Source of the DNA: an uncultured Clostridia bacterium
Lineage (GTDB): Bacteria > Acidobacteriota > Aminicenantia > UBA2199
DNA: 64,000 nt
NCBI GenBank assembly: GCA_964491915.1
Contig: CAZBHS010000027.1
Span: forward strand, 2,694 to 66,693
Direction of reading: 5' to 3'
Below, in pieces: positions 42,016 to 53,076 of the stretch. How positions within the stretch are numbered: position 1 is the stretch's first letter; every line of letters starts with the position of its first letter. The position numbers were made by a program, and so were the translations under genes. The notes beneath the pieces were generated by a model. It was not told where the DNA came from, made no database searches, and saw only the letters and a program-made list of their open reading frames with translations.

Positions 42016-42094
42016 GTATTTTGAAAGACTCCCTTTCAAAACACCCTTGTATTTCGAAAGGGTAAGTTGCAAAACACCCTTGTATTTTGAAAGG
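42016..42094 (+). repeat. 33-bp-phased direct repeats overlapping the promoter of the AAA ATPase gene
   Basis: CAAAACACCCTTGTATTTCGAAAGG (42037-42061) and CAAAACACCCTTGTATTTTGAAAGG (42070-42094) differ at 1 of 25 positions. A partial copy GTATTTTGAAAG lies at 42016-42027. TATAAT is at 42102-42107 and a TTGTAT -35 sits inside the last repeat. Confidence 0.7.
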
Positions 42095-42128
42095 ATTAGA
42101 GTATAATAGGGAGTGAAAGGAGCGAAAA

Positions 42129-43433
42129 ATGAAGCGGTGGATTGAAAGACAACTGCTGGAATGGAAAGACAGCAAGAGAAGAAAACCCCTCATCTTGAGG
42201 GGAGCCCGGCAAGTGGGAAAGACCTGGAGTGTAAAAAAACTGGGGGCGGACCATTTTGAAAATACCGTCCACATGGATTTAGAGAAAAATCGTCAATTTC
42301 ATTCCCTGTTCGAAGGCGATCTCGATCCAAAAATCATTGTCCAGAACATCGAAGTTCTTTTGAAGACGAAGATAACTTCCGGGAAAACATTGCTGTTCAT
42401 CGACGAGATTCAGAGCTGCCCAAGGGCCATTATGGCGCTTCGATATTTCTACGAGGAGATGCCGCAACTCCATCTGATCGCCGCAGGCTCGCTGCTGGAG
42501 TTCGCTTTATCCGAAATCTCATTTCCCGTCGGCAGAATACAATATCTACACATGACGCCGATGACCTTTTCGGAATATCTAATGGCGATGGGAAACGAAA
42601 AGGCCCTGGAAATCATTCAATACAAACCTCAAAAATTGCCGGAGCCGATCCACCTCTCTCTCCTCAGGGATCTTAAAACATATTTCTTCGTAGGAGGAAT
42701 GCCGGAGAGCGTCAAATCCTTCGTTCAAACCGGCAGTATCGCCGAGTGCTTCAAAATTCATGAAGAGCTTGTCCACTCATTTAAAGACGATTTTGGAAAA
42801 TACGCCGCCCTATCCAACAAAGATTGCCTGGAAGAGATATTTACCAACACCTCCAAAAACATTGGGAATCAACTGGTTTACTCCGGTTTATCCAACACCT
42901 TTTCCCATCCTACGATAAAAAAGGCGTTTGATTTGCTCGTGAAGGCCAGGATGATCAAGAAGGTTGAATCGGTGGGAAAGCTGGAGCTTCCCTTGGATGT
43001 ACAGAGTTCTTCGCGAAAATTCAAGGCCATTATGCTGGACATCGGGATCTGGCAACAATTGAGCGGAATTTCTGTTGAAAACGCGATAGCTGAATCCGAT
43101 TTGATGAACATATACCGTGGGGCGTTGGCTGAGCAATATGTGGGCCAGGAACTGGCGGCCTCCACCGGCGAAAGCCTTTACTATTGGGCCAGAGGCGCCA
43201 AAAGCAGCGCCGCGGAGGTCGATTATATCGTTACAGTAAAAGGAAAAATCTACCCCATCGAGGTGAAAAGCGGCAGTTCAGGCTCGCTAAAAAGTCTCCA
43301 CCTGGCCTTGAAAACCTATCCCGATTGTCCCGGAGGCATCGTCTTTTCAACCAGAGAGTACGGCGAAATCCCAGAGCAAAAACTAACCTTCCTTCCCCTC
43401 TACTACGCCGCCCATTTCACCAATTCCCTCTAG
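42129..43433 (+). CDS. AAA+ ATPase of the AAA_14/DUF4143 type
   Basis: 434 aa with Walker A GARQVGKTW and Walker B LLFIDEIQ, plus a C-terminal restriction-endonuclease-like tail (EVDYIV...IYPIEVKSG). Confidence 0.8.
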   Translation: MKRWIERQLLEWKDSKRRKPLILRGARQVGKTWSVKKLGADHFENTVHMDLEKNRQFHSLFEGDLDPKIIVQNIEVLLKTKITSGKTLLFIDEIQSCPRAIMALRYFYEEMPQLHLIAAGSLLEFALSEISFPVGRIQYLHMTPMTFSEYLMAMGNEKALEIIQYKPQKLPEPIHLSLLRDLKTYFFVGGMPESVKSFVQTGSIAECFKIHEELVHSFKDDFGKYAALSNKDCLEEIFTNTSKNIGNQLVYSGLSNTFSHPTIKKAFDLLVKARMIKKVESVGKLELPLDVQSSSRKFKAIMLDIGIWQQLSGISVENAIAESDLMNIYRGALAEQYVGQELAASTGESLYYWARGAKSSAAEVDYIVTVKGKIYPIEVKSGSSGSLKSLHLALKTYPDCPGGIVFSTREYGEIPEQKLTFLPLYYAAHFTNSL

Positions 43434-43440
43434 GAAATTT

Positions 43441-43549
43441 TATGATGGTCACCCAAATGGTCACCGGGGTGGAGGGGGAATCTGGGGAGGTTGATTATAA
43501 GCGAGCCGATGGGCGGAGTCGAACCGCCGACCTTTTGATTACGAATCAA
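43441..43549 (-). repeat. distal att repeat of the island (displaced 3' part of tRNA-Thr plus flank)
   Basis: 43492-43549 is identical over 58 bp to 52992-53049. A further ~50 bp (43441-43491) aligns with mismatches and one indel to 52934-52991. Confidence 0.85.
43504..43549 (-). pseudogene. tRNA-Thr fragment (positions 28-73 only)
   Basis: It is identical to the 3' 46 nt of the intact tRNA-Thr at 53004-53076. Identity ends inside the anticodon stem, and the 5' half is missing. Confidence 0.85.
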
Positions 43550-43933
43550 GGACACAGTTTTTCGTCCCCTTTCGAGGGGAATAAAAAAACCATTAAATAT
43601 CCGCCATTTCACCCTCACAATCAACCTTTTACCCAAAAGGCCACCAAACAAATTCGCATAGTTAAAAGCAGTAAAAACCACTCTTTTCTCACTTAATATG
43701 ATATAAATTAGCCACCATTTGGACACCAAACGACTAAAGAAACTCCAAACGAACCCAAACGAGAGCCATATTTTTTTCTCTCTATCCTGCCCTATTGGCA
43801 GATTGCAGACAATATTTACCGGTAACCAGTTTTTTCAAAATAATTGAAAAAAAATTCAAAAAAAAAATAAAAACCCGAATTACAGAAGGTCCACCCATAG
43901 AGTCTGAGCAGCCACAAATATATTATAATGTGT

Positions 43934-45799
43934 TCAACGGAAGCTGGTCTTTTCTGTGTCGATCCCTTCAAAGATCAGATAATCAGAAGTTTTGTAATGG
44001 GATACGCTGATATTATAAATCTCGGTTCCTAAATAAACGACTGTTTTTCCTTGATTGATCAGTTGATCTATAAGGTTGAGGAAATGTTTTTCAAAGGGCC
44101 GTGATTCGCCTTTTAGATAATCGTTGATTATAAATGTTTCTCCTTTCGCAAACGTGAGGGACGAGTAGAGTTTTTTCAATAACTCTATAGATGGGTTCGG
44201 CTCTTTCAAATCCATTTCTTTTACATCCAGGGCCTTGAGGTTATCCAGGACCTTGTTTTTTTCTACTTCCAGGATATTGGGGAAGATGTCTATTACTTTT
44301 TGGGGGGCCATTTCAAAACCAAGATCAATCTCCGACATAGAATCCAGGCCTGATATATTGTTTCCCTGGCGAGTTAGAATTTTGAAAACGTTGTTTCGGT
44401 ATTCTTCGTCACGGCACAGCACAAAAAATGAAGTTCCTTTCTTGTATTCCAATTTTGGGCTTCGTTCCTCAAGCGGGATATAATTGAGCGTTTTCTTGAT
44501 TCTGTAGACTGAAATCAGGAGTAGTGCCAAAAGATAGATAATTGTCGTCAAAAGGCCGGGGGGAAAATTCCCGGGTAACTTACTCTGAGCTTTGATGATG
44601 TTTTCTTCGCCACTGAAAAAGGGATCTACGGTTTTATCCTGTTCGACATATCTTTTTTGCACATAGAACGCCAAAAAATTGTCTCTGATTTTTTCAATGG
44701 CTTTTAGAAAATCAATATAACTCAAAAATCCTTCGCTTGATAATTCAGTGGACAAACAATTGTAGAAGGTCGTCGGGAAAATGAACGATATTTTCTCTCG
44801 ATAGTCGATCACAGCGTTCATTTGGTTTTGAAACGCTTTTTCTTTCTGCTTGTTGATTTTATACCCTTCGGTCCAATATTGGATTGACTCTTTCAAGCGA
44901 AGGGCCTTTATTTCCTCATTGGATCCATTTTGGCTTTTTAGGTCCTCGACCTTTCTGTTTATCGCTTGTTGAGCGTCCATTAAATTGGTGATTTTTTCTA
45001 AATGCAACGCCTCTAAAGGTTCAATTGAAGCTGTCCTATTGTAGATGCTCGTCCTGGAAATTTCTGGGATAACAAAAATGAATAATGCCCATACGGCAAT
45101 GGCTACCCAGGTTTTTTTAGTCTTTCTGAATAACGAAAGAAGCAATCCCACCATATAAAAAAACAGGAAGTAGCAAAGCGCAAACATGCAATATCGTAGA
45201 AAATTGCTAGTATCCAATTCTGAAAAGATGATTCCCCTTTCTATAGCAAACAAATAGTTCAAGAAAAAAATAAAGCAAAACGCCGCACTTAAAAAGAGCA
45301 CCCTAAATAAAATCGAAAACAAGACCTTCTTTCTGGTAATTATATGTTCAATAAACTTTGTGCTTCGGAAATTCAAGAATCCCATTATTATCATATACAG
45401 GCTACCTAAAACAAAAAGAATCCCTCCGAAATCCTTCATCTTTCCGTCATCGAATAGGGCGCGCCCCTTGAAGCTCTTTATCGGTTTGATTATCTCGCTA
45501 GTATCGATGTTACTTTCAAGAGTATGGAGAATCTTGTATTTTTCAAAGAAAATCACCAGTGGCGACGGTTCGTATAGAATCCTAAAACCATATCCGCCAT
45601 ATTGATCATAATACATGTATCTAGACACTTTGGCTTTTTCATATCTCAAGAAATCCTGTTTATTCTGCTCAAAATTCTTGTAATCCGTTATCCCGGAATT
45701 TACGAAATAGAGGGTCAAGAACAAGATTATAATAATGGCGGCAATACTTTTTTTGTTGTAGAAAATCCGTAAAAATTCAAATTTAGCGATATCAATCAC
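43934..45799 (-). CDS. island cargo: multi-pass membrane protein (ABC-2-permease-like) fused to a degenerate ABC-ATPase-like C-terminal domain
   Basis: 621 aa. It has an N-terminal TM, a cluster of ~5 TMs (residues ~125-260), a long helical segment and one more TM (~400-420). The soluble tail has Walker-A position LEYKKGTSFFVLCRDEEYRNNVFKIL (no GxxGxGK[ST]) and Walker-B position GETFIINDYLKG...GKTVVYLGTE (no D-E). Confidence 0.6.
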   Translation of the reverse strand: MIDIAKFEFLRIFYNKKSIAAIIIILFLTLYFVNSGITDYKNFEQNKQDFLRYEKAKVSRYMYYDQYGGYGFRILYEPSPLVIFFEKYKILHTLESNIDTSEIIKPIKSFKGRALFDDGKMKDFGGILFVLGSLYMIIMGFLNFRSTKFIEHIITRKKVLFSILFRVLFLSAAFCFIFFLNYLFAIERGIIFSELDTSNFLRYCMFALCYFLFFYMVGLLLSLFRKTKKTWVAIAVWALFIFVIPEISRTSIYNRTASIEPLEALHLEKITNLMDAQQAINRKVEDLKSQNGSNEEIKALRLKESIQYWTEGYKINKQKEKAFQNQMNAVIDYREKISFIFPTTFYNCLSTELSSEGFLSYIDFLKAIEKIRDNFLAFYVQKRYVEQDKTVDPFFSGEENIIKAQSKLPGNFPPGLLTTIIYLLALLLISVYRIKKTLNYIPLEERSPKLEYKKGTSFFVLCRDEEYRNNVFKILTRQGNNISGLDSMSEIDLGFEMAPQKVIDIFPNILEVEKNKVLDNLKALDVKEMDLKEPNPSIELLKKLYSSLTFAKGETFIINDYLKGESRPFEKHFLNLIDQLINQGKTVVYLGTEIYNISVSHYKTSDYLIFEGIDTEKTSFR

Positions 45800-45837
45800 A
45801 GTTCACCATCCTTCCTTTTAAGAGTGTTGTTTAGGAT

Positions 45838-46497
45838 CTACAAGAAAGCCTTTCTCGATAAAACCGTTGAATAATTACCAAATAAGGCGGTTTCGGAAAA
45901 CTTTTGATAAACTGCCCAGTAGAGAGTGATATCCGACTTGATTCCCTTACCGAGGTCATTGGAAATCAACTTTAAAGAATCAAGGATATCATTGAGCTTC
46001 TCCAGGTGACGCCGATAAAGCCCCAGGACATCGCCCTTACTCAAATATCCTTTTACTTCATTCGCTATGATTGAATTTAAATTTTTCTCAATTATCGCCG
46101 AATCATAATCAAAATGCAGCAGCTTGTTTCTGTAAAATTCCACGTACTGGAGTTGTTCGCCCAATGAAATGATCGTGGCATACTTTTCTATTGAAGCTTC
46201 AAGTTTAGCGATCGTGGATTCCAGTTTTTCGCAAGCTGTCCCTAGATTGAAAACAGCTTTTCCCGAACTTTCATACTCTTTTAGCAATAACAATGACTCT
46301 GAATAGGAATCAATAAACAGAGCCGCTCCGTCGATAAGCAAATCACTTATTTCTTCACGTCCACCGGTCAATGCTTGCAACGGTGTATCCGGTGCCGGTG
46401 GGAATATCGGATCAGAATCATTTAAGTGCAAATCCGAGATCAACAAACCTGATGTAGAAACAACGAGAATTAAGAAAAGAATTGCCTTGGTTTTCAT
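45838..46497 (-). CDS. island cargo: secreted all-helical hypothetical protein
   Basis: I set the start at ATG 46497 (MKTKAILFLILVVSTSG, GGAG 9 nt upstream) rather than track start 46539. The stop is 38 nt upstream of the next gene. Confidence 0.6.
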   Translation of the reverse strand: MKTKAILFLILVVSTSGLLISDLHLNDSDPIFPPAPDTPLQALTGGREEISDLLIDGAALFIDSYSESLLLLKEYESSGKAVFNLGTACEKLESTIAKLEASIEKYATIISLGEQLQYVEFYRNKLLHFDYDSAIIEKNLNSIIANEVKGYLSKGDVLGLYRRHLEKLNDILDSLKLISNDLGKGIKSDITLYWAVYQKFSETALFGNYSTVLSRKAFL

Positions 46498-46684
46498 AGC
46501 TGAGACTCCTTTAAAGTTTAGTTTCCTTAGTCGTTTCACCTGATTAGAAAGCGTTCTAGATCCTGAATTATAGCAAGTGGTAAAAATTAATTCAATACTA
46601 CTCCTCCTGTCTTGTAAATTTTTTCATATTTTTAATCTATCAATCTTAAAGCGGGAATTGATATCGTTCATTAGCTCTCGAATA

Positions 46685-47383
46685 TTAGCCAGAAGTAAAA
46701 TCAACCAAATCTTTATCGAGTAGCGGTTTCCACCGTAAGTAAAACTCCGCGATGATGTGTTCTCTAAAATTCGGATATTTCTCCATGTAGTGGAGAAGGT
46801 CTGTATAGCGGTACTCTATGGCTTTACCAGTATAATCTTTCGATATCTGAATAACCGCTTCTTTCTTTTGTGTTGGTTCCAACTTCGGTGTATTTAACTC
46901 TTCTTCGGAGACCTCGCGAATGCTTCCCACCACGTAATCAATGACATACCTTGTAAACCTAATGTCGAAGGTCTTCTTCCCGGAGGGGGTGTCGAAGGTC
47001 TCCCGGAGCCGGTACATTTTTTCGGGATCTATTTTATATGAGTTTATTTCCTTCAATAATCCGGGGGGGAGGATCTCGTCAATCTGAACGGTTTGAGGTG
47101 GTTCCGGTTCGATAAGAGTGATTTTCCATTTTGATAAATCTACCGTATGCAGGTCAAAACGATAAGCTGGAGATGTCGGTCTCTCGTTTTCATAAACTTC
47201 CATTTGCCCATAAGCAATTTCGCGGTATTTTCTTTTTAAATTTCTGATAGCCTTCAGAGGGAATTGATTAATGAACTGGGATTCTCTCAATGTATAAAAT
47301 AAATAGTCACGTGCAGATGGAAGGTCCAATAACTCATCGAACTGCCCCATCAAGTATTCTTTTGATCTTTCATAATCTTCCAT
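46685..47383 (-). CDS. island cargo: hypothetical cytoplasmic protein translationally coupled to an XRE regulator
   Basis: 232 aa with no motif I recognise. The ATG is 3 nt after the stop of the XRE gene 47387-47827. Confidence 0.6.
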   Translation of the reverse strand: MEDYERSKEYLMGQFDELLDLPSARDYLFYTLRESQFINQFPLKAIRNLKRKYREIAYGQMEVYENERPTSPAYRFDLHTVDLSKWKITLIEPEPPQTVQIDEILPPGLLKEINSYKIDPEKMYRLRETFDTPSGKKTFDIRFTRYVIDYVVGSIREVSEEELNTPKLEPTQKKEAVIQISKDYTGKAIEYRYTDLLHYMEKYPNFREHIIAEFYLRWKPLLDKDLVDFTSG

Positions 47384-47386
47384 GTT

Positions 47387-47827
47387 TCACCTCCGATTTA
47401 ATTTTTCAGATAGTACTTTTTCTATATATTCTTGATTGGCTGTTTGGAATTCGATAAAATACTTCAGCATTGAATAACGAACCAAATCTACATGCTTCAT
47501 GGCCTCAAAAAGGTTTTTTACATTCTCTCGCTCCAATCCAAATTCACTTGAAGAGACGATTTGATCCACAAACGCAGCTCCAGTTCCATTTAAAATATAG
47601 TTGATGTTCACTCCGAATTTGTCCAAAAGTGCGAATAGATACCGTGACGACGGTTTTTTGAGTCCATTCTCCGCCTCGGAGATCAAACTTCGGGAAAAGC
47701 CGGTTTGCCGGTACGCTTCTTCGATAGTAAGATGCAACTTTTTCCTAACTTCGCGAAGCCGCCGGCCAATTAATTCTCTATTAAATTGATCTATTTCCAT
47801 TTGCTCATTCGCGTTATTGAGATGCAA
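47387..47827 (-). CDS. XRE-family HTH regulator (paralog 2)
   Basis: 146 aa. The HTH is IGRRLREVRKKLHLTIEEAYRQTGFSRSLISEAENGLKKPSSRYLFALLDKFGVNINYIL. Its C-terminal ~60-aa domain is shared with paralog 1. Confidence 0.85.
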   Translation of the reverse strand: MHLNNANEQMEIDQFNRELIGRRLREVRKKLHLTIEEAYRQTGFSRSLISEAENGLKKPSSRYLFALLDKFGVNINYILNGTGAAFVDQIVSSSEFGLERENVKNLFEAMKHVDLVRYSMLKYFIEFQTANQEYIEKVLSEKLNRR

Positions 47828-47881
47828 TTACGAATAATTATATATCACAATCAATAGAAAAATCAATAGCCTTGAAAATCT

Positions 47882-48298
47882 TTATGCAGACCCTTTGTCG
47901 TCCTCAATCTGATTTCGAATCAATTCATCATATTGGGCTTTGTATTCGAGGAAATATTTAAGGATGGTGAACCTTACCACATCAGCCTTTTTCATATACA
48001 ACAATAGGCTGTGAACAAGTTTTGCGTCCTTCCCGAAGTCTTCAAAAACAAGCTCTTCACCCAAAAACATATCGCCTCGCCCGGACAAAATATAATTCAG
48101 GTTCACTTTAAATAAATCCAACAAGGCGAATAAATAAGTAGAGGACGGTTTCTTCAATCCGTTTTCGGCCTCGGAGATAAGACTACGGGAAAACCCCGTT
48201 GCCTGATACATCTTTTCAATAGTAAGGTTCAAGGTCTCGCGTACCTGGCGAAGACGTTCCCCAACTTCTTCCTGATTTAATTTCGTTTTTTTAGTCAT
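47882..48298 (-). CDS. XRE-family HTH regulator (paralog 1)
   Basis: 138 aa. The HTH is VGERLRQVRETLNLTIEKMYQATGFSRSLISEAENGLKKPSSTYLFALLDLFKVNLNYIL. Confidence 0.85.
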   Translation of the reverse strand: MTKKTKLNQEEVGERLRQVRETLNLTIEKMYQATGFSRSLISEAENGLKKPSSTYLFALLDLFKVNLNYILSGRGDMFLGEELVFEDFGKDAKLVHSLLLYMKKADVVRFTILKYFLEYKAQYDELIRNQIEDDKGSA

Positions 48299-48492
48299 TT
48301 TGTTTGCAAAACCCTTTATCTTATAATATAATTTACAACAATGAGAATATTTAATTTAAATTCGCGGCACTCATTCCGCTTACTTAGAGAATCATACGTT
48401 TCCCTGACGTTCATCTTTTCAAATATACCCTATCAATTGAGAAAAAACAAGTATATAAGCGAAATTCGCGAACAAAGGAGAGTAAACCAATT

Positions 48493-48909
48493 ATGGAAAA
48501 ACATTTTCGCTTAACTATAGACCTGAAGGTGGATATTAAGGAATCGGTGGAAAGGGGAATCAAGAACCGTAACTTGATAGAGGCCTTTGTCAAACAGTTT
48601 TTAGCTGATGACGAGGCGGTCTTGAAATTCTTTCGCATGTGGTTGCGGGATGAATTCAGGACCGGGGATTTGGGGGAGAAAATTTCCGATAGCTTTCCAA
48701 GGGAGCGAGACACCGACATATTACGTCCAGTGGCTGAGGCATGCACTCAAAAAGTGAGAGAACACTTTTTAAACGCCCTTATCACGGAAGAAAAACAGGG
48801 ACATAACGAAAATTACTCAGATTGGGAATGTTTTTTTGAACAGATCCGCTTTTTTGATGTGGAAGGTGTGATTTTCGAGCTGGCGGGAGCGGCAAAAGAG
48901 CATGGTTGA
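48493..48909 (+). CDS. island cargo: hypothetical protein
   Basis: 138 aa, divergent from XRE paralog 1, with AAGGAG upstream of the ATG and no recognisable motif. Confidence 0.5.
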   Translation: MEKHFRLTIDLKVDIKESVERGIKNRNLIEAFVKQFLADDEAVLKFFRMWLRDEFRTGDLGEKISDSFPRERDTDILRPVAEACTQKVREHFLNALITEEKQGHNENYSDWECFFEQIRFFDVEGVIFELAGAAKEHG

Positions 48910-49200
48910 GGTGATTGTAGGATTTAACATAAACCGGCGTAGTCCCACGCCGGATTGTTCCTTTCTCTATTTTAATAACCAAAATAGTTTAAAGCCGGTC
49001 CTCGCAGTTCGCGGGGGCCGGTCATTTCGTTTTGTTCACTCAAACAGACGACTTACTCTAAAACATTCATCGCGGGAGAGAAAAACTTGGTTTCACCTCC
49101 TTTTTTTGATAGCCTCTCGAAGCGGATATTGGGGCCGGGTCCTCAACCTAAGGACCCGGCTCTCATTCCCACAAGCCAAACGTAAAGCAAAGGTGACTGC

Positions 49201-49533
49201 ATGAACAATTCAAAAAACGCCCTAGCGTTCAACCGGAAATCTCCCGAAATCTCAGAGCTACGCAATTCCCTGGCTTTCAATTTGGAGTCAGCAACAATCA
49301 TCGAAGAAGACGACGGTTTCAGATTAGAAGTCCAGCAATCAAAAACCTCTCCCCTCTCAAAATCCTACCCAACTCTCACCCAAGCCCGCCAAGACTTCCT
49401 CAACCGCTATGGAACCCTCACAAATGAAGGAAAACCAACAATCCACCCCCAATGGACCGAATTCTTCACCCCCGACACAGAACCCGACCTGTTAATCCTA
49501 TATATCGTCAATCAAGACCGGATCCCAAAATGA
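49201..49533 (+). CDS. island cargo: hypothetical protein
   Basis: 110 aa. It contains an internal repeat NALAFNRKSPEISELRNSLAFNLES and is followed by a GC-rich hairpin plus T-run near 49685-49720. Confidence 0.45.
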   Translation: MNNSKNALAFNRKSPEISELRNSLAFNLESATIIEEDDGFRLEVQQSKTSPLSKSYPTLTQARQDFLNRYGTLTNEGKPTIHPQWTEFFTPDTEPDLLILYIVNQDRIPK

Positions 49534-49883
49534 TCCCCAGCAAACCCGAACTCCATATTGTTAATTTTTTAGATAGTTCATGAAGGCACGCCGGGCCGCG
49601 CGAGCCCCGACGCAATCGCGGCCCGCCGGCCCACCTTTCTTCCCTTGCAATCCAATCAAAGGATATTTACTTTGATTTTCATCAGCCGGCCTTTCCCCCA
49701 CGGAAGGGCCGGTCTTTTTCCAATCCAACATCGATGACCAAAACCACCACCAACTTCAGCCTTCGGCCCCAACCATAAATAAGCCAAAAAAAACATCACA
49801 CACTACGCAACCTTTCAGGTTAAAGCCTTTCGTCCAAAAAAACCATCACCAAAAAATATACAAGAAAATCACAAACGTTGCAG

Positions 49884-49960
49884 ATGGCACCTTTTATGGC
49901 ACCAAAGAGTGCGATAAGCTTTGCTGTGAAAGGTTATTGTATGGCACCCCAAATGGCACC
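49884..49960 (+). repeat. four phased ATGGCACC direct repeats (two pairs, 12-bp spacing)
   Basis: ATGGCACC occurs at 49884, 49896, 49941 and 49953. The second pair, ATGGCACCCCAAATGGCACC, closely matches ATGGTCACCCAAATGGTCACC at 43445-43465 beside the distal att repeat. Confidence 0.75.
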
Positions 49961-50200
49961 TCGCAAATTCGAGGGAATAATTTCGCAGGAGATTGCGCAC
50001 CGGTCCACATTTTTTACAAGTCCAACAGTTAACCTTTACATTTTTTTTCATACCGCCCTCATCTGAACTCACAAGCATAACACAATTACAAGGCAGAATA
50101 GAAATCCCAAAAAAACACATGGGAAGCTTGAAAATAACACAATTTTAGTATATAAATAATGTAAAAGGGAAAGACAAATTTAAAAATTAGGAGATGCACA

Positions 50201-50478: not shown

Positions 50479-50682
50479 ATGCCTAGGTTGACAGTTGAAT
50501 TTACAGATGAAGCGTACAAGCTCTTAGAAAAGATTGCAGAAGAGATGGGCAATTCGAAAAAAGAAGCAATTAAAAGGGCAATTTCACTACTTGGGCTAGC
50601 AATTGAAGAGCAAAAAAACGGGAGTGTTCTTGAATTTGCAAATGAGAAAAAGAACTATAGGCGGGAGATTGCTTTTTTATAG
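50479..50682 (+). CDS. ribbon-helix-helix (CopG/Arc-like) DNA-binding protein
   Basis: 67 aa. MPRLTVEFTDEAYKLLEKIAEEMGNSKKEAIKRAISLL fits the strand-helix-helix pattern. AAGGAG lies upstream. Confidence 0.6.
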   Translation: MPRLTVEFTDEAYKLLEKIAEEMGNSKKEAIKRAISLLGLAIEEQKNGSVLEFANEKKNYRREIAFL

Positions 50683-51223: not shown

Positions 51224-52240
51224 TCATTCCCAAACTTCGAAGGCGTTTACTAGTTTTTGTTGGCCTTCTAGGAGGGCTTTGGTGTATCTGGAGGTGGTTT
51301 GGATGTCTGAATGCCCGAGTGTTTCTTTTAGGGAGATTAGATCTCCGCCGTTTAGTAGGGCGTAGGTGGCGAAGCAATGTCTAAGGTCGTGGAAGCGGGA
51401 ATCTTTGATTGTGGCTCTTTTTAGGAGCGTATACCATGATTTTTTTATGTCGGTGTAGGGCTTTCCTGTTTTTGGGTTTTCGAATACATAGTCCCGGTTG
51501 TTTTTGTCGGATTGGAGTTTGGCTAGTAATTTTTTTGTGGCGTTGTTGAGTGGTATGCGCCTTAGTTTTTTGGACTTGGTTTTTTGAACGGTTATAAATC
51601 CTTTTTCGACATTCACCTGGCTCCATTTTAGCTTTAGGATTTCTCCTTTTCTCATCCCTGTGTTCAGTGCCACCAGTATGATGTATTTCAAGGGGATTCC
51701 CGCCAGGGCGAGTAACCGTTGAATTTCATTTTCGGTTAGAATTCTCTCTTTCGGCTCTTCTTTGAACATTGGTAATTTGGAGAGGGGGTTGGAATCGAGA
51801 ATTTTCCATTCTACCGCTTTGTTCAAGACACTTCTTAGTAGTGCGCCTTCTCTGTTTACTGTGGTTTTGGACACTAGCTTGTTTTGGTTCTTTGATTTTT
51901 GGTTAAGTCTAATATTGCGGTATTGTTCAAAGTGGAAGGTGGAGATTTCGTGGAGGTCTAGATCTCCCAGGAAGGTGATTAGATTTTTCATGAGGCTGAT
52001 GTCTGTTCCGTAGCTTCGTTTGGTGGGGACTGAGACTTTTTCTAAATAGAACATTGCAAAATTGGAGAATTTCACTTTCTGATGGTCTTCCGGTTCGGTT
52101 TTTTTATTTAATTCCTCAGCCCTCAAAGCTAGTAAAGCTTTCTCGGCTTCCCGCTTATTTTTTGAAACCGGCTTTCTGATTCTTTCGCCATCAACATAAT
52201 AGTCCACCCACCATTTATCATTTTTTTTGAAGAGCCCCAT
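51224..52240 (-). CDS. tyrosine recombinase (phage-type integrase)
   Basis: 338 aa. The C-terminal catalytic region is NTGMRKGEIL...HDLRHCFATYAL...LGHSDIQTTSRYT (R...HxxR...Y). It lies about 760 bp from tRNA-Thr. Confidence 0.9.
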   Translation of the reverse strand: MGLFKKNDKWWVDYYVDGERIRKPVSKNKREAEKALLALRAEELNKKTEPEDHQKVKFSNFAMFYLEKVSVPTKRSYGTDISLMKNLITFLGDLDLHEISTFHFEQYRNIRLNQKSKNQNKLVSKTTVNREGALLRSVLNKAVEWKILDSNPLSKLPMFKEEPKERILTENEIQRLLALAGIPLKYIILVALNTGMRKGEILKLKWSQVNVEKGFITVQKTKSKKLRRIPLNNATKKLLAKLQSDKNNRDYVFENPKTGKPYTDIKKSWYTLLKRATIKDSRFHDLRHCFATYALLNGGDLISLKETLGHSDIQTTSRYTKALLEGQQKLVNAFEVWE

Positions 52241-52243
52241 TTC

Positions 52244-52594
52244 TTAATTCCTTTTTCTGGTCTTCAATTGCTCTAAAAAAAAGTCAAATTGTTGGACAGT
52301 CTTGGTACTAGCGCTTTTTAACTTTGGTAGATTCGGGATTCCAGCGATCATGCTTTCACTTTCAAACTCAATGTCCCCAGGCCTGACAGAATGACAATCA
52401 ATCCAGTCATTTAAGGATACGGGATTGAATTTAACAAGTCCCCCTATCCCTGTCCCAAATTTTACAAAAGGAATTTTCTTTTCTAACACCCAAACTCTGA
52501 TCGTTGATGTTGAAATATTCAAAATCTCTGCGACTTCATCTACATTTAAAAGATTATTCCCAGTAAAAAGCGCCAATTGTACCTCCAGTTTCAT
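52244..52594 (-). CDS. excisionase-family (MerR-like) HTH protein
   Basis: LLNVDEVAEILNISTSTIRVWVLEKKIPFVKFG. I set the start at ATG 52594; the track start 52639 is possible. The stop is 3 nt before the integrase ATG. Confidence 0.7.
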   Translation of the reverse strand: MKLEVQLALFTGNNLLNVDEVAEILNISTSTIRVWVLEKKIPFVKFGTGIGGLVKFNPVSLNDWIDCHSVRPGDIEFESESMIAGIPNLPKLKSASTKTVQQFDFFLEQLKTRKRN

Positions 52595-52933
52595 TTTCAG
52601 TTTCGTCAAAAGCCGGCAAAATAGCCGCTTCAAGAACATTAAACCTTAATACCATATCAGTCTCCAAGATAAAATTTCCCGATATAAATCAATATAATAC
52701 TAGCAAAACCATTTGTCAAGCACCAGTAAACTAGAAGTGCCGAACCTACAATACCATCCCAAACCCTTACTATAAAACACTATTCACAACCTATACAAAA
52801 ACATAGCGCCCACTTATCAAAACACTAAAGCAGACGTATTTGGACGAATGTGAAAGAATTTAAGAGCATCACTTATTGTTAAATATATACCTTTGAAATA
52901 GATGGTCAACTTTTTAGCGAACAGGGTTTTGTT

Positions 52934-53049
52934 ATGGTCACTATTTGGTCACTGAAATGGCCGCCGGAATGGAGGGGGAATCTGGAAAGGCTGATTATAA
53001 GCGAGCCGATGGGCGGAGTCGAACCGCCGACCTTTTGATTACGAATCAA
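52934..53049 (-). repeat. tRNA-proximal att repeat of the island
   Basis: This is the counterpart of 43441-43549. It contains phased ATGGTCAC (52934), TTGGTCAC (52945) and ATGGCCGC (52957), plus ATGGTCAA at 52902. Confidence 0.85.
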
Positions 53050-53076
53050 ACGCTCTACCAACTGAGCTACATCGGC
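53004..53076 (-). tRNA. tRNA-Thr (anticodon CGT)
   Basis: A 73-nt cloverleaf folded by hand on the minus strand: acceptor GCCGATG/CATCGGC, D stem GCTC/GAGC, anticodon stem TTTGA/TCAAA with loop TTCGTAA, T stem GGCGG/CCGCC with loop TTCGACT. Confidence 0.95.

Follow-up and report, generated by a model that had tools for sequence, protein, structure and literature searches.

A predicted ABC half-transporter with a degenerate nucleotide-binding domain, its exported partner and XRE regulators on a tRNA-Thr element of an uncultured Aminicenantia bacterium

What kind of system do two paralogous XRE regulators, an orphan cytoplasmic protein, a predicted exported protein and a permease fused to a dead ATPase-like domain make up when they lie side by side on an integrated element? 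This question is raised by a stretch of 64,000 nucleotides (the window, to which all coordinates without a locus number refer) from an uncultured Clostridia bacterium placed by the GTDB in the Aminicenantia (Acidobacteriota; UBA2199); it spans positions 2,694 to 66,693 of contig CAZBHS010000027.1 (assembly GCA_964491915.1). Five genes, all of them on the minus strand, are concerned: (i) XRE-1 (47882..48298); (ii) XRE-2 (47387..47827); (iii) p232 (46685..47383), which encodes a 232-aa orphan cytoplasmic protein and is translationally coupled to XRE-2; (iv) sec219 (45838..46497), whose product is a 219-aa predicted exported or membrane-anchored protein; and (v) the gene of a 621-aa permease (43934-45799). 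A preliminary description, made from the sequence before any database search, had read them as the cargo operon of an accessory system on a mobile island.

In an open reading frame (ORF) check, the five genes were found where that description had placed them, and the spacings agree as well: 3 nt separate the stop of XRE-2 from the start of p232, and 38 nt separate sec219 from the permease gene. The anatomy that emerges, and that can be stated with high confidence, is that of a tRNA-Thr element with two linked modules: a regulator module that ends with p232, and a membrane module formed by sec219 and the permease. The genes are better described as two exchangeable modules than as one fixed operon, and the permease at the centre of the second module has the architecture of an ABC (ATP-binding cassette) protein, with every catalytic motif of its ATPase domain lost.

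The permease and its degenerate ATPase domain

The 621-aa protein is a predicted ABC-2/type V (ABCA-like) half-transporter. Its transmembrane domain (TMD; aa 1-437, 44489..45799) has six transmembrane (TM) segments and two large outside loops, and is followed by a domain with ABC ATPase homology (aa 438-621, 43937..44488), here called the pseudo-NBD (pseudo-nucleotide-binding domain). Hydropathy and charge bias place the N-terminus inside, the loops of aa 38-123 and 251-415 outside, and the C-terminal 185 aa inside; these six hydrophobic segments in ABC-2 topology bear out the multi-TM, ABC-2-permease-like core that had been read from the translation. The window protein matches Pfam ABC2_membrane_2 weakly (22.3 bits vs a cut-off of 27.2), its homolog P0010 passes that cut-off (37.4 bits), and 6 of 14 relatives match at E<=0.1. 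An AlphaFold2 model computed from 14 sequences (predicted local distance difference test, pLDDT, 82.5; predicted template modelling score, pTM, 0.80) has the TMD-then-NBD architecture of ABC proteins. Against the PDB, Foldseek searches with it returned ABC transporters throughout, with true superpositions only on ABCA1, ABCA7 and ABCA4 (query-normalised template modelling score, TMq, 0.35-0.42); against BFVD, they returned generic giant-virus ABC transporters only.

The claim, made by eye, that the C-terminal domain is a dead NBD proved right, and it extends to the whole family. A profile built from 12 C-terminal domains matches solved ABC ATPases, namely Wzt 6amx (E=8.6e-6), ABCA3 (1.4e-5), TagH/TarH and NosF. 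At the position of Walker A (GPNGAGKST) the family consensus reads 'ckneklrde', and LCRDEEYRN is found in the window protein; at that of Walker B (IIDE) the consensus is 'inDf' and the window protein has FIINDY, with Asp replaced by Asn and Glu by Asp; in place of the H-loop His, the window protein has Gly (VVYLGTE) and most relatives have Ser (YLS). When the NBDs of ~40 family members, fused or split, were scanned with regular expressions, no Walker A, Walker B Asp-Glu (hhhDE[PAS]) or signature motif was found; the sole signature match, FSGGE, lies in P0011, a 448-aa permease-only protein.

From these replacements, the permease is predicted to be unable to bind or hydrolyse ATP via the canonical site. 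By homology it is a type V ABC derivative, and it should not be classed with the ABC transporters on functional grounds, because four defining catalytic features are missing. The case of an ordinary ABC-2 exporter with a separate ATPase was also looked for: in the loci examined, no ATPase gene was seen in the dead domain's position or otherwise near the permease, and the gene that holds the ATPase position in the split forms described below is itself motif-dead. ATP-driven export is the least likely of the functions that had been proposed (immunity, abortive infection, export).

The closest known relatives are the type V ABC exporters (Wzm-Wzt for O-antigen, TarGH/TagGH for teichoic acid, NosFY, and ABCA1/3/4/7). 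The permease shares with them the 6-TM ABC-2 TMD and, with the ABCA proteins, the order TMD then NBD; both the NBD profile and the superpositions point to this class. It differs from these exporters in that all four catalytic motifs are missing from every member of the family, that there are two large helical loops on the outside, that an exported partner of ~215 aa is obligatory, and that no replacement ATPase gene is present.

The loss of the motifs does not correspond to decay. For the unsaturated ortholog pair L001/L016 (loci are cited by such numbers), the ratio of nonsynonymous to synonymous substitution rates (omega, Nei-Gojobori method) is 0.15 for sec219, 0.135 for the permease and 0.19 for the pseudo-NBD. 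An omega of about 0.19 shows that purifying selection still maintains the pseudo-NBD. In a comparison of 16 fused forms, conservation is highest in the outside loops (mean identity 41% and 33%), where most of the invariant polar residues are found, and lowest in the pseudo-NBD (22%), which has two residues conserved at >=85%.

Two exchangeable modules and their distribution

A word-indexed protein search returned 14 permease clusters, with long forms of 606-665 aa and short forms of 446-449 aa. In the short (split) forms, a separate 228-230-aa gene overlaps the permease stop and encodes the same NBD-like domain, equally motif-dead. A scan of species-representative genomes added 21 further loci, mostly in metagenome-assembled genomes (MAGs) of Candidatus Aminicenantes / Acidobacteriota, with up to three copies per MAG. 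Whether homologs of the 232-aa and 621-aa proteins occur together elsewhere had been put forward as a check on the preliminary description: they do co-occur in other genomes, and the genes were seen together in over 30 loci, which come from different samples and MAGs.

The split forms belong to one conserved chromosomal locus (L001:6028-12607; orthologous in L016, L017, L021 and L031). They are preceded by the genes of a CarboxypepD_reg protein and of a single-domain response regulator, and followed by those of a convergent NtrC-type regulator and a histidine kinase, with gcv genes beyond. The fused forms occur in variable contexts, and their neighbours include peptidases, an LTD protein, a STAND NTPase and PFL. 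As a separate observation, a giant RHS/YD-repeat protein is encoded two genes away from the sec/permease pair in L010 (7639-12407, minus strand); none such was seen in the other loci. The reading of the set as island cargo is valid for the window, but the membrane core is also chromosomal, as the split version, in Aminicenantes-type genomes.

The division into two modules is best seen by comparison with L010, which belongs to a sister element. In blastn, the island and L010 share 79% DNA identity only over 46681-48963, a stretch that begins with the p232 stop codon and ends shortly after the gene o138. Gene by gene, p232 is 84% identical, XRE-1 88% and o138 70%, vs 28% for the permease and 32% for sec219. 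Because the p232 stop codon is the exact limit of the DNA similarity, and because the modules stand tail-to-tail outside the window, two modules are recognised: (i) a backbone common to sister elements, which consists of XRE-XRE-p232 and the divergent genes o138 and o110; and (ii) sec219 and the permease, as a separately exchanged pair. The "operon" layout holds for the window, where the modules are collinear, but it is not the conserved state, since the arrangement is tail-to-tail in 11 other loci, with the 3' ends of the p232 and permease modules overlapping in several of them. Nor are the five genes the full set: the neighbourhood is larger and also takes in o138 and o110, which lie beyond 48298. 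In any case, the idea of an accessory system whose parts belong together on a mobile island stands as far as co-occurrence and the pseudo-ATPase permease are concerned, with two exchangeable modules instead of a single operon.

The exported partner follows the permease closely. A sec219 homolog adjoins it in 23 of 27 loci according to ORF clustering, and was found by tblastn in every locus with enough sequence. An exhaustive HMMER search found 644 representative clusters of the sec219 family (270 at E<=1e-10), nearly all of 205-230 aa. The protein has one N-terminal hydrophobic segment and gave no match in Pfam, NCBIfam, PHROGs, PADLOC or the PDB; a profile search against the PDB and Pfam was likewise empty. 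Its ORF reaches 46539 with an upstream GTG, and the alignment of homologs favours the Met at 46497. Upstream, on the minus strand, a promoter-like site with an extended -10 (TTGAAT-17-TGcTATAAT, 46567..46595) was recognised by consensus match, in a scan whose total number of such sites was not above that of shuffles; it suggests that the pair may form a separate transcription unit. Further upstream there is a perfect inverted repeat (TATCAAT-N12-ATTGATA, 46638..46663), a candidate operator to which cross-locus comparison gave no support.

At the end of the backbone, p232 is nearly an orphan: even profile queries retrieved no more than three database clusters. Homologs with 24-35% identity were detected by tblastn in 13 loci, five of which were retrieved independently from a p232 query. 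In all 12 informative loci p232 adjoins a fused permease and comes after an XRE gene of the same subfamily. No match was found in Pfam, NCBIfam, PHROGs, PADLOC or the PDB, and a profile search against the PDB and Pfam was empty. As regards a type II toxin-antitoxin pair with an XRE antitoxin, p232 and eight homologs match no toxin family in Pfam, NCBIfam or the PDB. The p232 model is of low confidence (pLDDT 52, from three database relatives) and has a weak fold likeness to PAS, LOV and Cache sensors (TMq 0.25), so that a PAS-like fold is a hint only.

The regulators and the integrated element

XRE-1 and XRE-2 are paralogs over both the helix-turn-helix (HTH) and the C-terminal domain, as had been noticed from their translations (55% identity over 122 aa, E=6e-46). 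XRE-1 is the most conserved gene of the backbone; XRE-2, an HTH_3 regulator with a C-terminal helical domain, has an alternative start at an internal ATG (47800). Both exceed the Pfam gathering scores for HTH_3 and HTH_19, with 39.7 and 40.4 bits for XRE-1, and 42.9 and 43.2 bits for XRE-2. Their PADLOC matches (RmrA, capH) are generic and confined to the HTH regions, and the NCBIfam SlrR matches are weak (HTH only, E ~0.05-0.09, far below the cut-off). One XRE subfamily with HTH and helical C-terminal domain is present in ~18 loci, where it accompanies fused permease forms; in most related loci a single XRE gene precedes p232. The pair resembles those of the SinR/SlrR type in that two paralogous XRE proteins share a C-terminal helical domain, and by analogy XRE-1 and XRE-2 could heteromerise into a switch; similarity to SlrR is restricted to the HTH.

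Between XRE-1 and the divergent o138 (48493..48909, plus strand), a conserved backbone gene, lies an intergenic region of 194 nt (48299..48492) that is 90% identical in the sister element L010. As this identity is kept although the flanking genes have a synonymous divergence (dS) of at least 1, the region is, to judge from its sequence, a strongly constrained switch region; it could hold operators or a small RNA. In the same comparison, omega is 0.20 for XRE-2, 0.16 for p232 and 0.20 for o138, and the value of ~0.04 for XRE-1 is unreliable owing to a saturated dS of 2.27. The half-site ATTGATA/TATCAAT is found in each of the three upstream regions that belong to the five-gene set: before sec219, in the XRE-1/o138 region (48431-48437), and before XRE-2 (47840-47865), there as two direct CTATTGAT copies. 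Over the window as a whole this half-site is not enriched (16 found vs 12.9 expected). The other divergent backbone gene, o110 (49201..49533, plus strand), belongs to a family built on a ~100-aa domain that recurs beside the modules in eight loci; in two of them (L008:3555-4547 and L024:2973-3938) this domain is the N-terminus of an MT-A70 (DPPW) DNA methyltransferase.

All these genes lie on an integrated element of ~9.5 kb (43.55-53.0 kb of the window), the left half of which is the five-gene set. The island setting was correctly recognised in the preliminary description, and the features of a tRNA-integrated tyrosine-recombinase element are present: an integrase gene by a tRNA gene, repeats that include the tRNA 3' end, and a deviating composition. 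The two 104-nt direct-repeat copies are 91% identical and overlap the 3' part of tRNA-Thr(CGT). The left copy, attL (43446..43549), comprises a tRNA-Thr 3' fragment and its downstream flank, with a perfect 56-nt core at 43493-43549; attR (52946..53076, minus strand) comprises the right copy (52946-53049), which overlaps the complete tRNA-Thr(CGT) gene (53003-53076). Just inside the right end there is a tyrosine integrase gene (51224..52240, minus strand; PF00589, E=8e-32), and upstream of it an excisionase-like HTH gene (52244..52639, minus strand), whose equivalent in L034 carries HTH_17. A ribbon-helix-helix (RHH, CopG) protein is encoded at 50479..50682 (plus strand). The GC content is 37-39% over the five genes and up to ~44% elsewhere in the island, vs ~45-53% in the flanks. 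When the flanks were compared by tblastx with the loci of the relatives, no similarity was found. The island is small and has neither replication nor transfer genes.

Some further observations concern the island and its surroundings. Locus L034, an ENA scaffold of 3149 nt from a second sample, carries an integrase, TM113, RHH and o78 identical to those of the island and a near-identical o83 (98.8%); on the basis of these sequences, the same element appears to be present in more than one metagenome. A Cys-rich ORF of 83 aa (CWTCKKCG...C..GC; 49869-50120, minus strand), 98.8% identical in L034, may code for a small zinc-finger protein that belongs to the island. An A/T-rich palindrome (TTTTTTCAATTATTTTGAAAAAA) with overlapping A-rich direct repeats (43830-43871), located between the stop of the permease gene and attL, could be a terminator or a recombination-associated site. 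On the other side of attL, just outside the island, the gene of a 434-aa ATPase (42129-43433, plus strand) stops 13 nt short of the repeat. In PADLOC, its product is matched by PDC-S01, a candidate defence family (E=4.5e-142), and the island is therefore inserted beside a candidate defence gene. Directly upstream of that gene there are two tandem 33-nt direct repeats (GTATTTTGAAAG...CAAAACACCCTT) and related 17-mers (42016-42095).

Possible roles and biological meaning

With respect to function, the reading that is tentatively preferred, and that may well turn out otherwise, is that of an XRE-controlled, ATP-independent envelope complex with a protective, immunity- or exclusion-type benefit. 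The permease would dimerise like type V ABC proteins, and sec219 would dock on its conserved periplasmic loops. As the dead domain sits in the place of the motor, the complex presumably could not pump with ATP; instead, it would bind, occlude or gate at the interface of inner membrane and periplasm. The XRE proteins would set its expression, with p232 as their cytoplasmic accessory, and both host and element would profit through protection of the immunity or exclusion kind. Such a pay-off seems the most likely one because the complex would owe its expression to the maintenance side of the element, and because sister elements exchange the module like a cassette. A partial likeness exists with the YhgE/Pip-EsaA/YueB proteins, ATPase-less ABC-2-like membrane proteins with a long helical extracellular domain that include a phage receptor and a type VIIb secretion component. 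By description, they have in common with the permease an ABC-2-like core that works without ATP hydrolysis and a helical extracytoplasmic extension; they differ in lacking an NBD remnant and in having their large domain between TM1 and TM2. Apart from a weak ABC2_membrane_3 match of one member (E=0.0013), the permease family showed no sequence relation to them.

Several results weigh against this proposal of a protective envelope complex. The split core occupies its conserved chromosomal locus without XRE or p232, and for this reason the ancestral role would be cellular and not element-specific. PADLOC-DB v2 gave no match for the permease, sec219 or p232, nor for 10 sampled neighbours of the modules, and only generic HTH matches for the XRE proteins; two peptide patterns found no relatives of the permease among the viral contigs of IMG/VR. 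The periplasmic loops are conserved and not hypervariable, as the surface of an arms race would be. Lastly, a comparison that took in the sec219 upstream region of L010 and the XRE upstream region of L024 revealed no operator word common to the XRE and sec219 upstream regions of elements with the same XRE recognition helix; direct control of the membrane module by XRE is, in consequence, unproven.

A doubtful, though serious, alternative is that of a pseudo-transporter sensor ("transceptor"), in which the dead ABC complex and sec219 would detect an envelope or periplasmic signal and the pseudo-NBD would relay it to p232 and/or the XRE C-terminal domain, thereby flipping the element's switch or a local regulon. 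That purifying selection keeps a non-catalytic domain in the cytoplasm suggests a role in protein interaction; the fused forms are accompanied by a dedicated XRE subfamily, whose members have an additional C-terminal domain; several paralogous modules are found per genome, as in families of sensing modules; genes for a single-domain response regulator and for an NtrC-type regulator/kinase pair adjoin the split forms; and the p232 model resembles PAS, LOV and Cache folds. In BceAB-BceRS, CylR1-CylR2 (a membrane protein and an XRE repressor) and MalK-MalT a membrane protein is likewise genetically tied to a dedicated regulator, here XRE, although BceAB and MalK are active ATPases and CylR1 is a small 3-TM protein. 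However, p232 and XRE-1 remain almost constant between the window and L010 (84% and 88%) while the pseudo-NBD is only ~26% identical, and just two pseudo-NBD residues reach 85% conservation across the fused forms. This module swap against near-constant partners, with so few conserved residues, makes an allele-specific contact of p232 or XRE with the pseudo-NBD unlikely. Besides, the PAS-like match rests on the model of pLDDT 52, and the two-component neighbours of the split forms are inherited synteny in one lineage. A transporter or lipid-handling device energised otherwise, through the proton-motive force, facilitated flipping/scrambling or an ATPase acting in trans, with XRE as a local regulator, is unlikely. 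The ABC-2 TMD is intact and under the strongest constraint (omega 0.135), the type V relatives Wzm-Wzt, TarGH and ABCA move lipid-linked glycans and lipids, and the conserved polar residues of the outside loops could form a substrate site. Nevertheless, the dead domain, fused or translationally coupled, fills the exact position of the motor and leaves a trans ATPase without a docking site; no candidate for such an ATPase was seen in the loci examined; and, to our knowledge, there is no precedent for a type V fold driven by the proton-motive force.

Abortive infection of the Rex type, in which p232 would sense infection and open the dead ABC protein as a membrane effector, so that the membrane potential collapses, is very unlikely, even though the window itself invites the comparison. 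As in lambda cI-rexA-rexB, repressors are followed by a cytoplasmic and then by membrane proteins on the maintenance side of a divergent switch in an integrated element, here by int/xis; p232 and the permease are strictly linked, and the membrane module is exchanged like a cassette. But this collinear order is unique to the window and gives way to convergent modules in the 11 other loci, a conserved chromosomal locus holds this core without p232, and the membrane part, unlike that of rexAB, is ABC-derived and has an exported partner. PHROGs holds no family for p232, sec219 or the permease and gave no homology to RexA/RexB or another phage exclusion protein, and no relative of the permease was found in the viral contigs; PADLOC is equally silent on the three proteins, and no defence genes were found among the sampled neighbours. 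That there is no system at all, and that the genes are accidental neighbours or decaying cargo on a defective island, is extremely improbable. The island is small, has no replication or transfer genes, and the NBD motifs are all lost; but the co-occurrence in the more than 30 loci mentioned above, together with an omega of 0.04-0.20 for every gene tested, excludes chance adjacency and decay for practical purposes, and the motif loss is family-wide and ancient, not recent.

None of the described systems corresponds to this gene set. Profile and structure searches place the proteins in no well-characterised family, which agrees with the preliminary description, where no named system had been recognised, and full-text literature searches found no described counterpart. 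A rather unlikely but far-reaching possibility is that of a new pseudo-transporter class: an ABC half-transporter would have abandoned ATP hydrolysis and been repurposed, with a periplasmic partner, an XRE subfamily and a PAS-like protein, for transmembrane sensing or gating, and small integrative elements would thereby read the envelope to choose between maintenance, excision and exclusion. If true, a sensing or gating pseudo-transporter would be a signalling or defence architecture without a described counterpart.

Whatever its role, the family stands apart from bacterial ABC systems, whose defining feature is the ATP motor: it has retained a motor domain that is under selection and motif-dead, which makes it a natural example of a pseudo-enzyme in a membrane machine. 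In uncultivated Aminicenantes/Acidobacteriota there is a conserved neighbourhood of four to six genes that current annotation labels "ABC transporter permease" or "hypothetical". If mobile elements use it for exclusion or sensing, a new mechanism would be added to that field; if it is an envelope housekeeping complex, its recognition would correct a systematic mis-annotation as a transporter.

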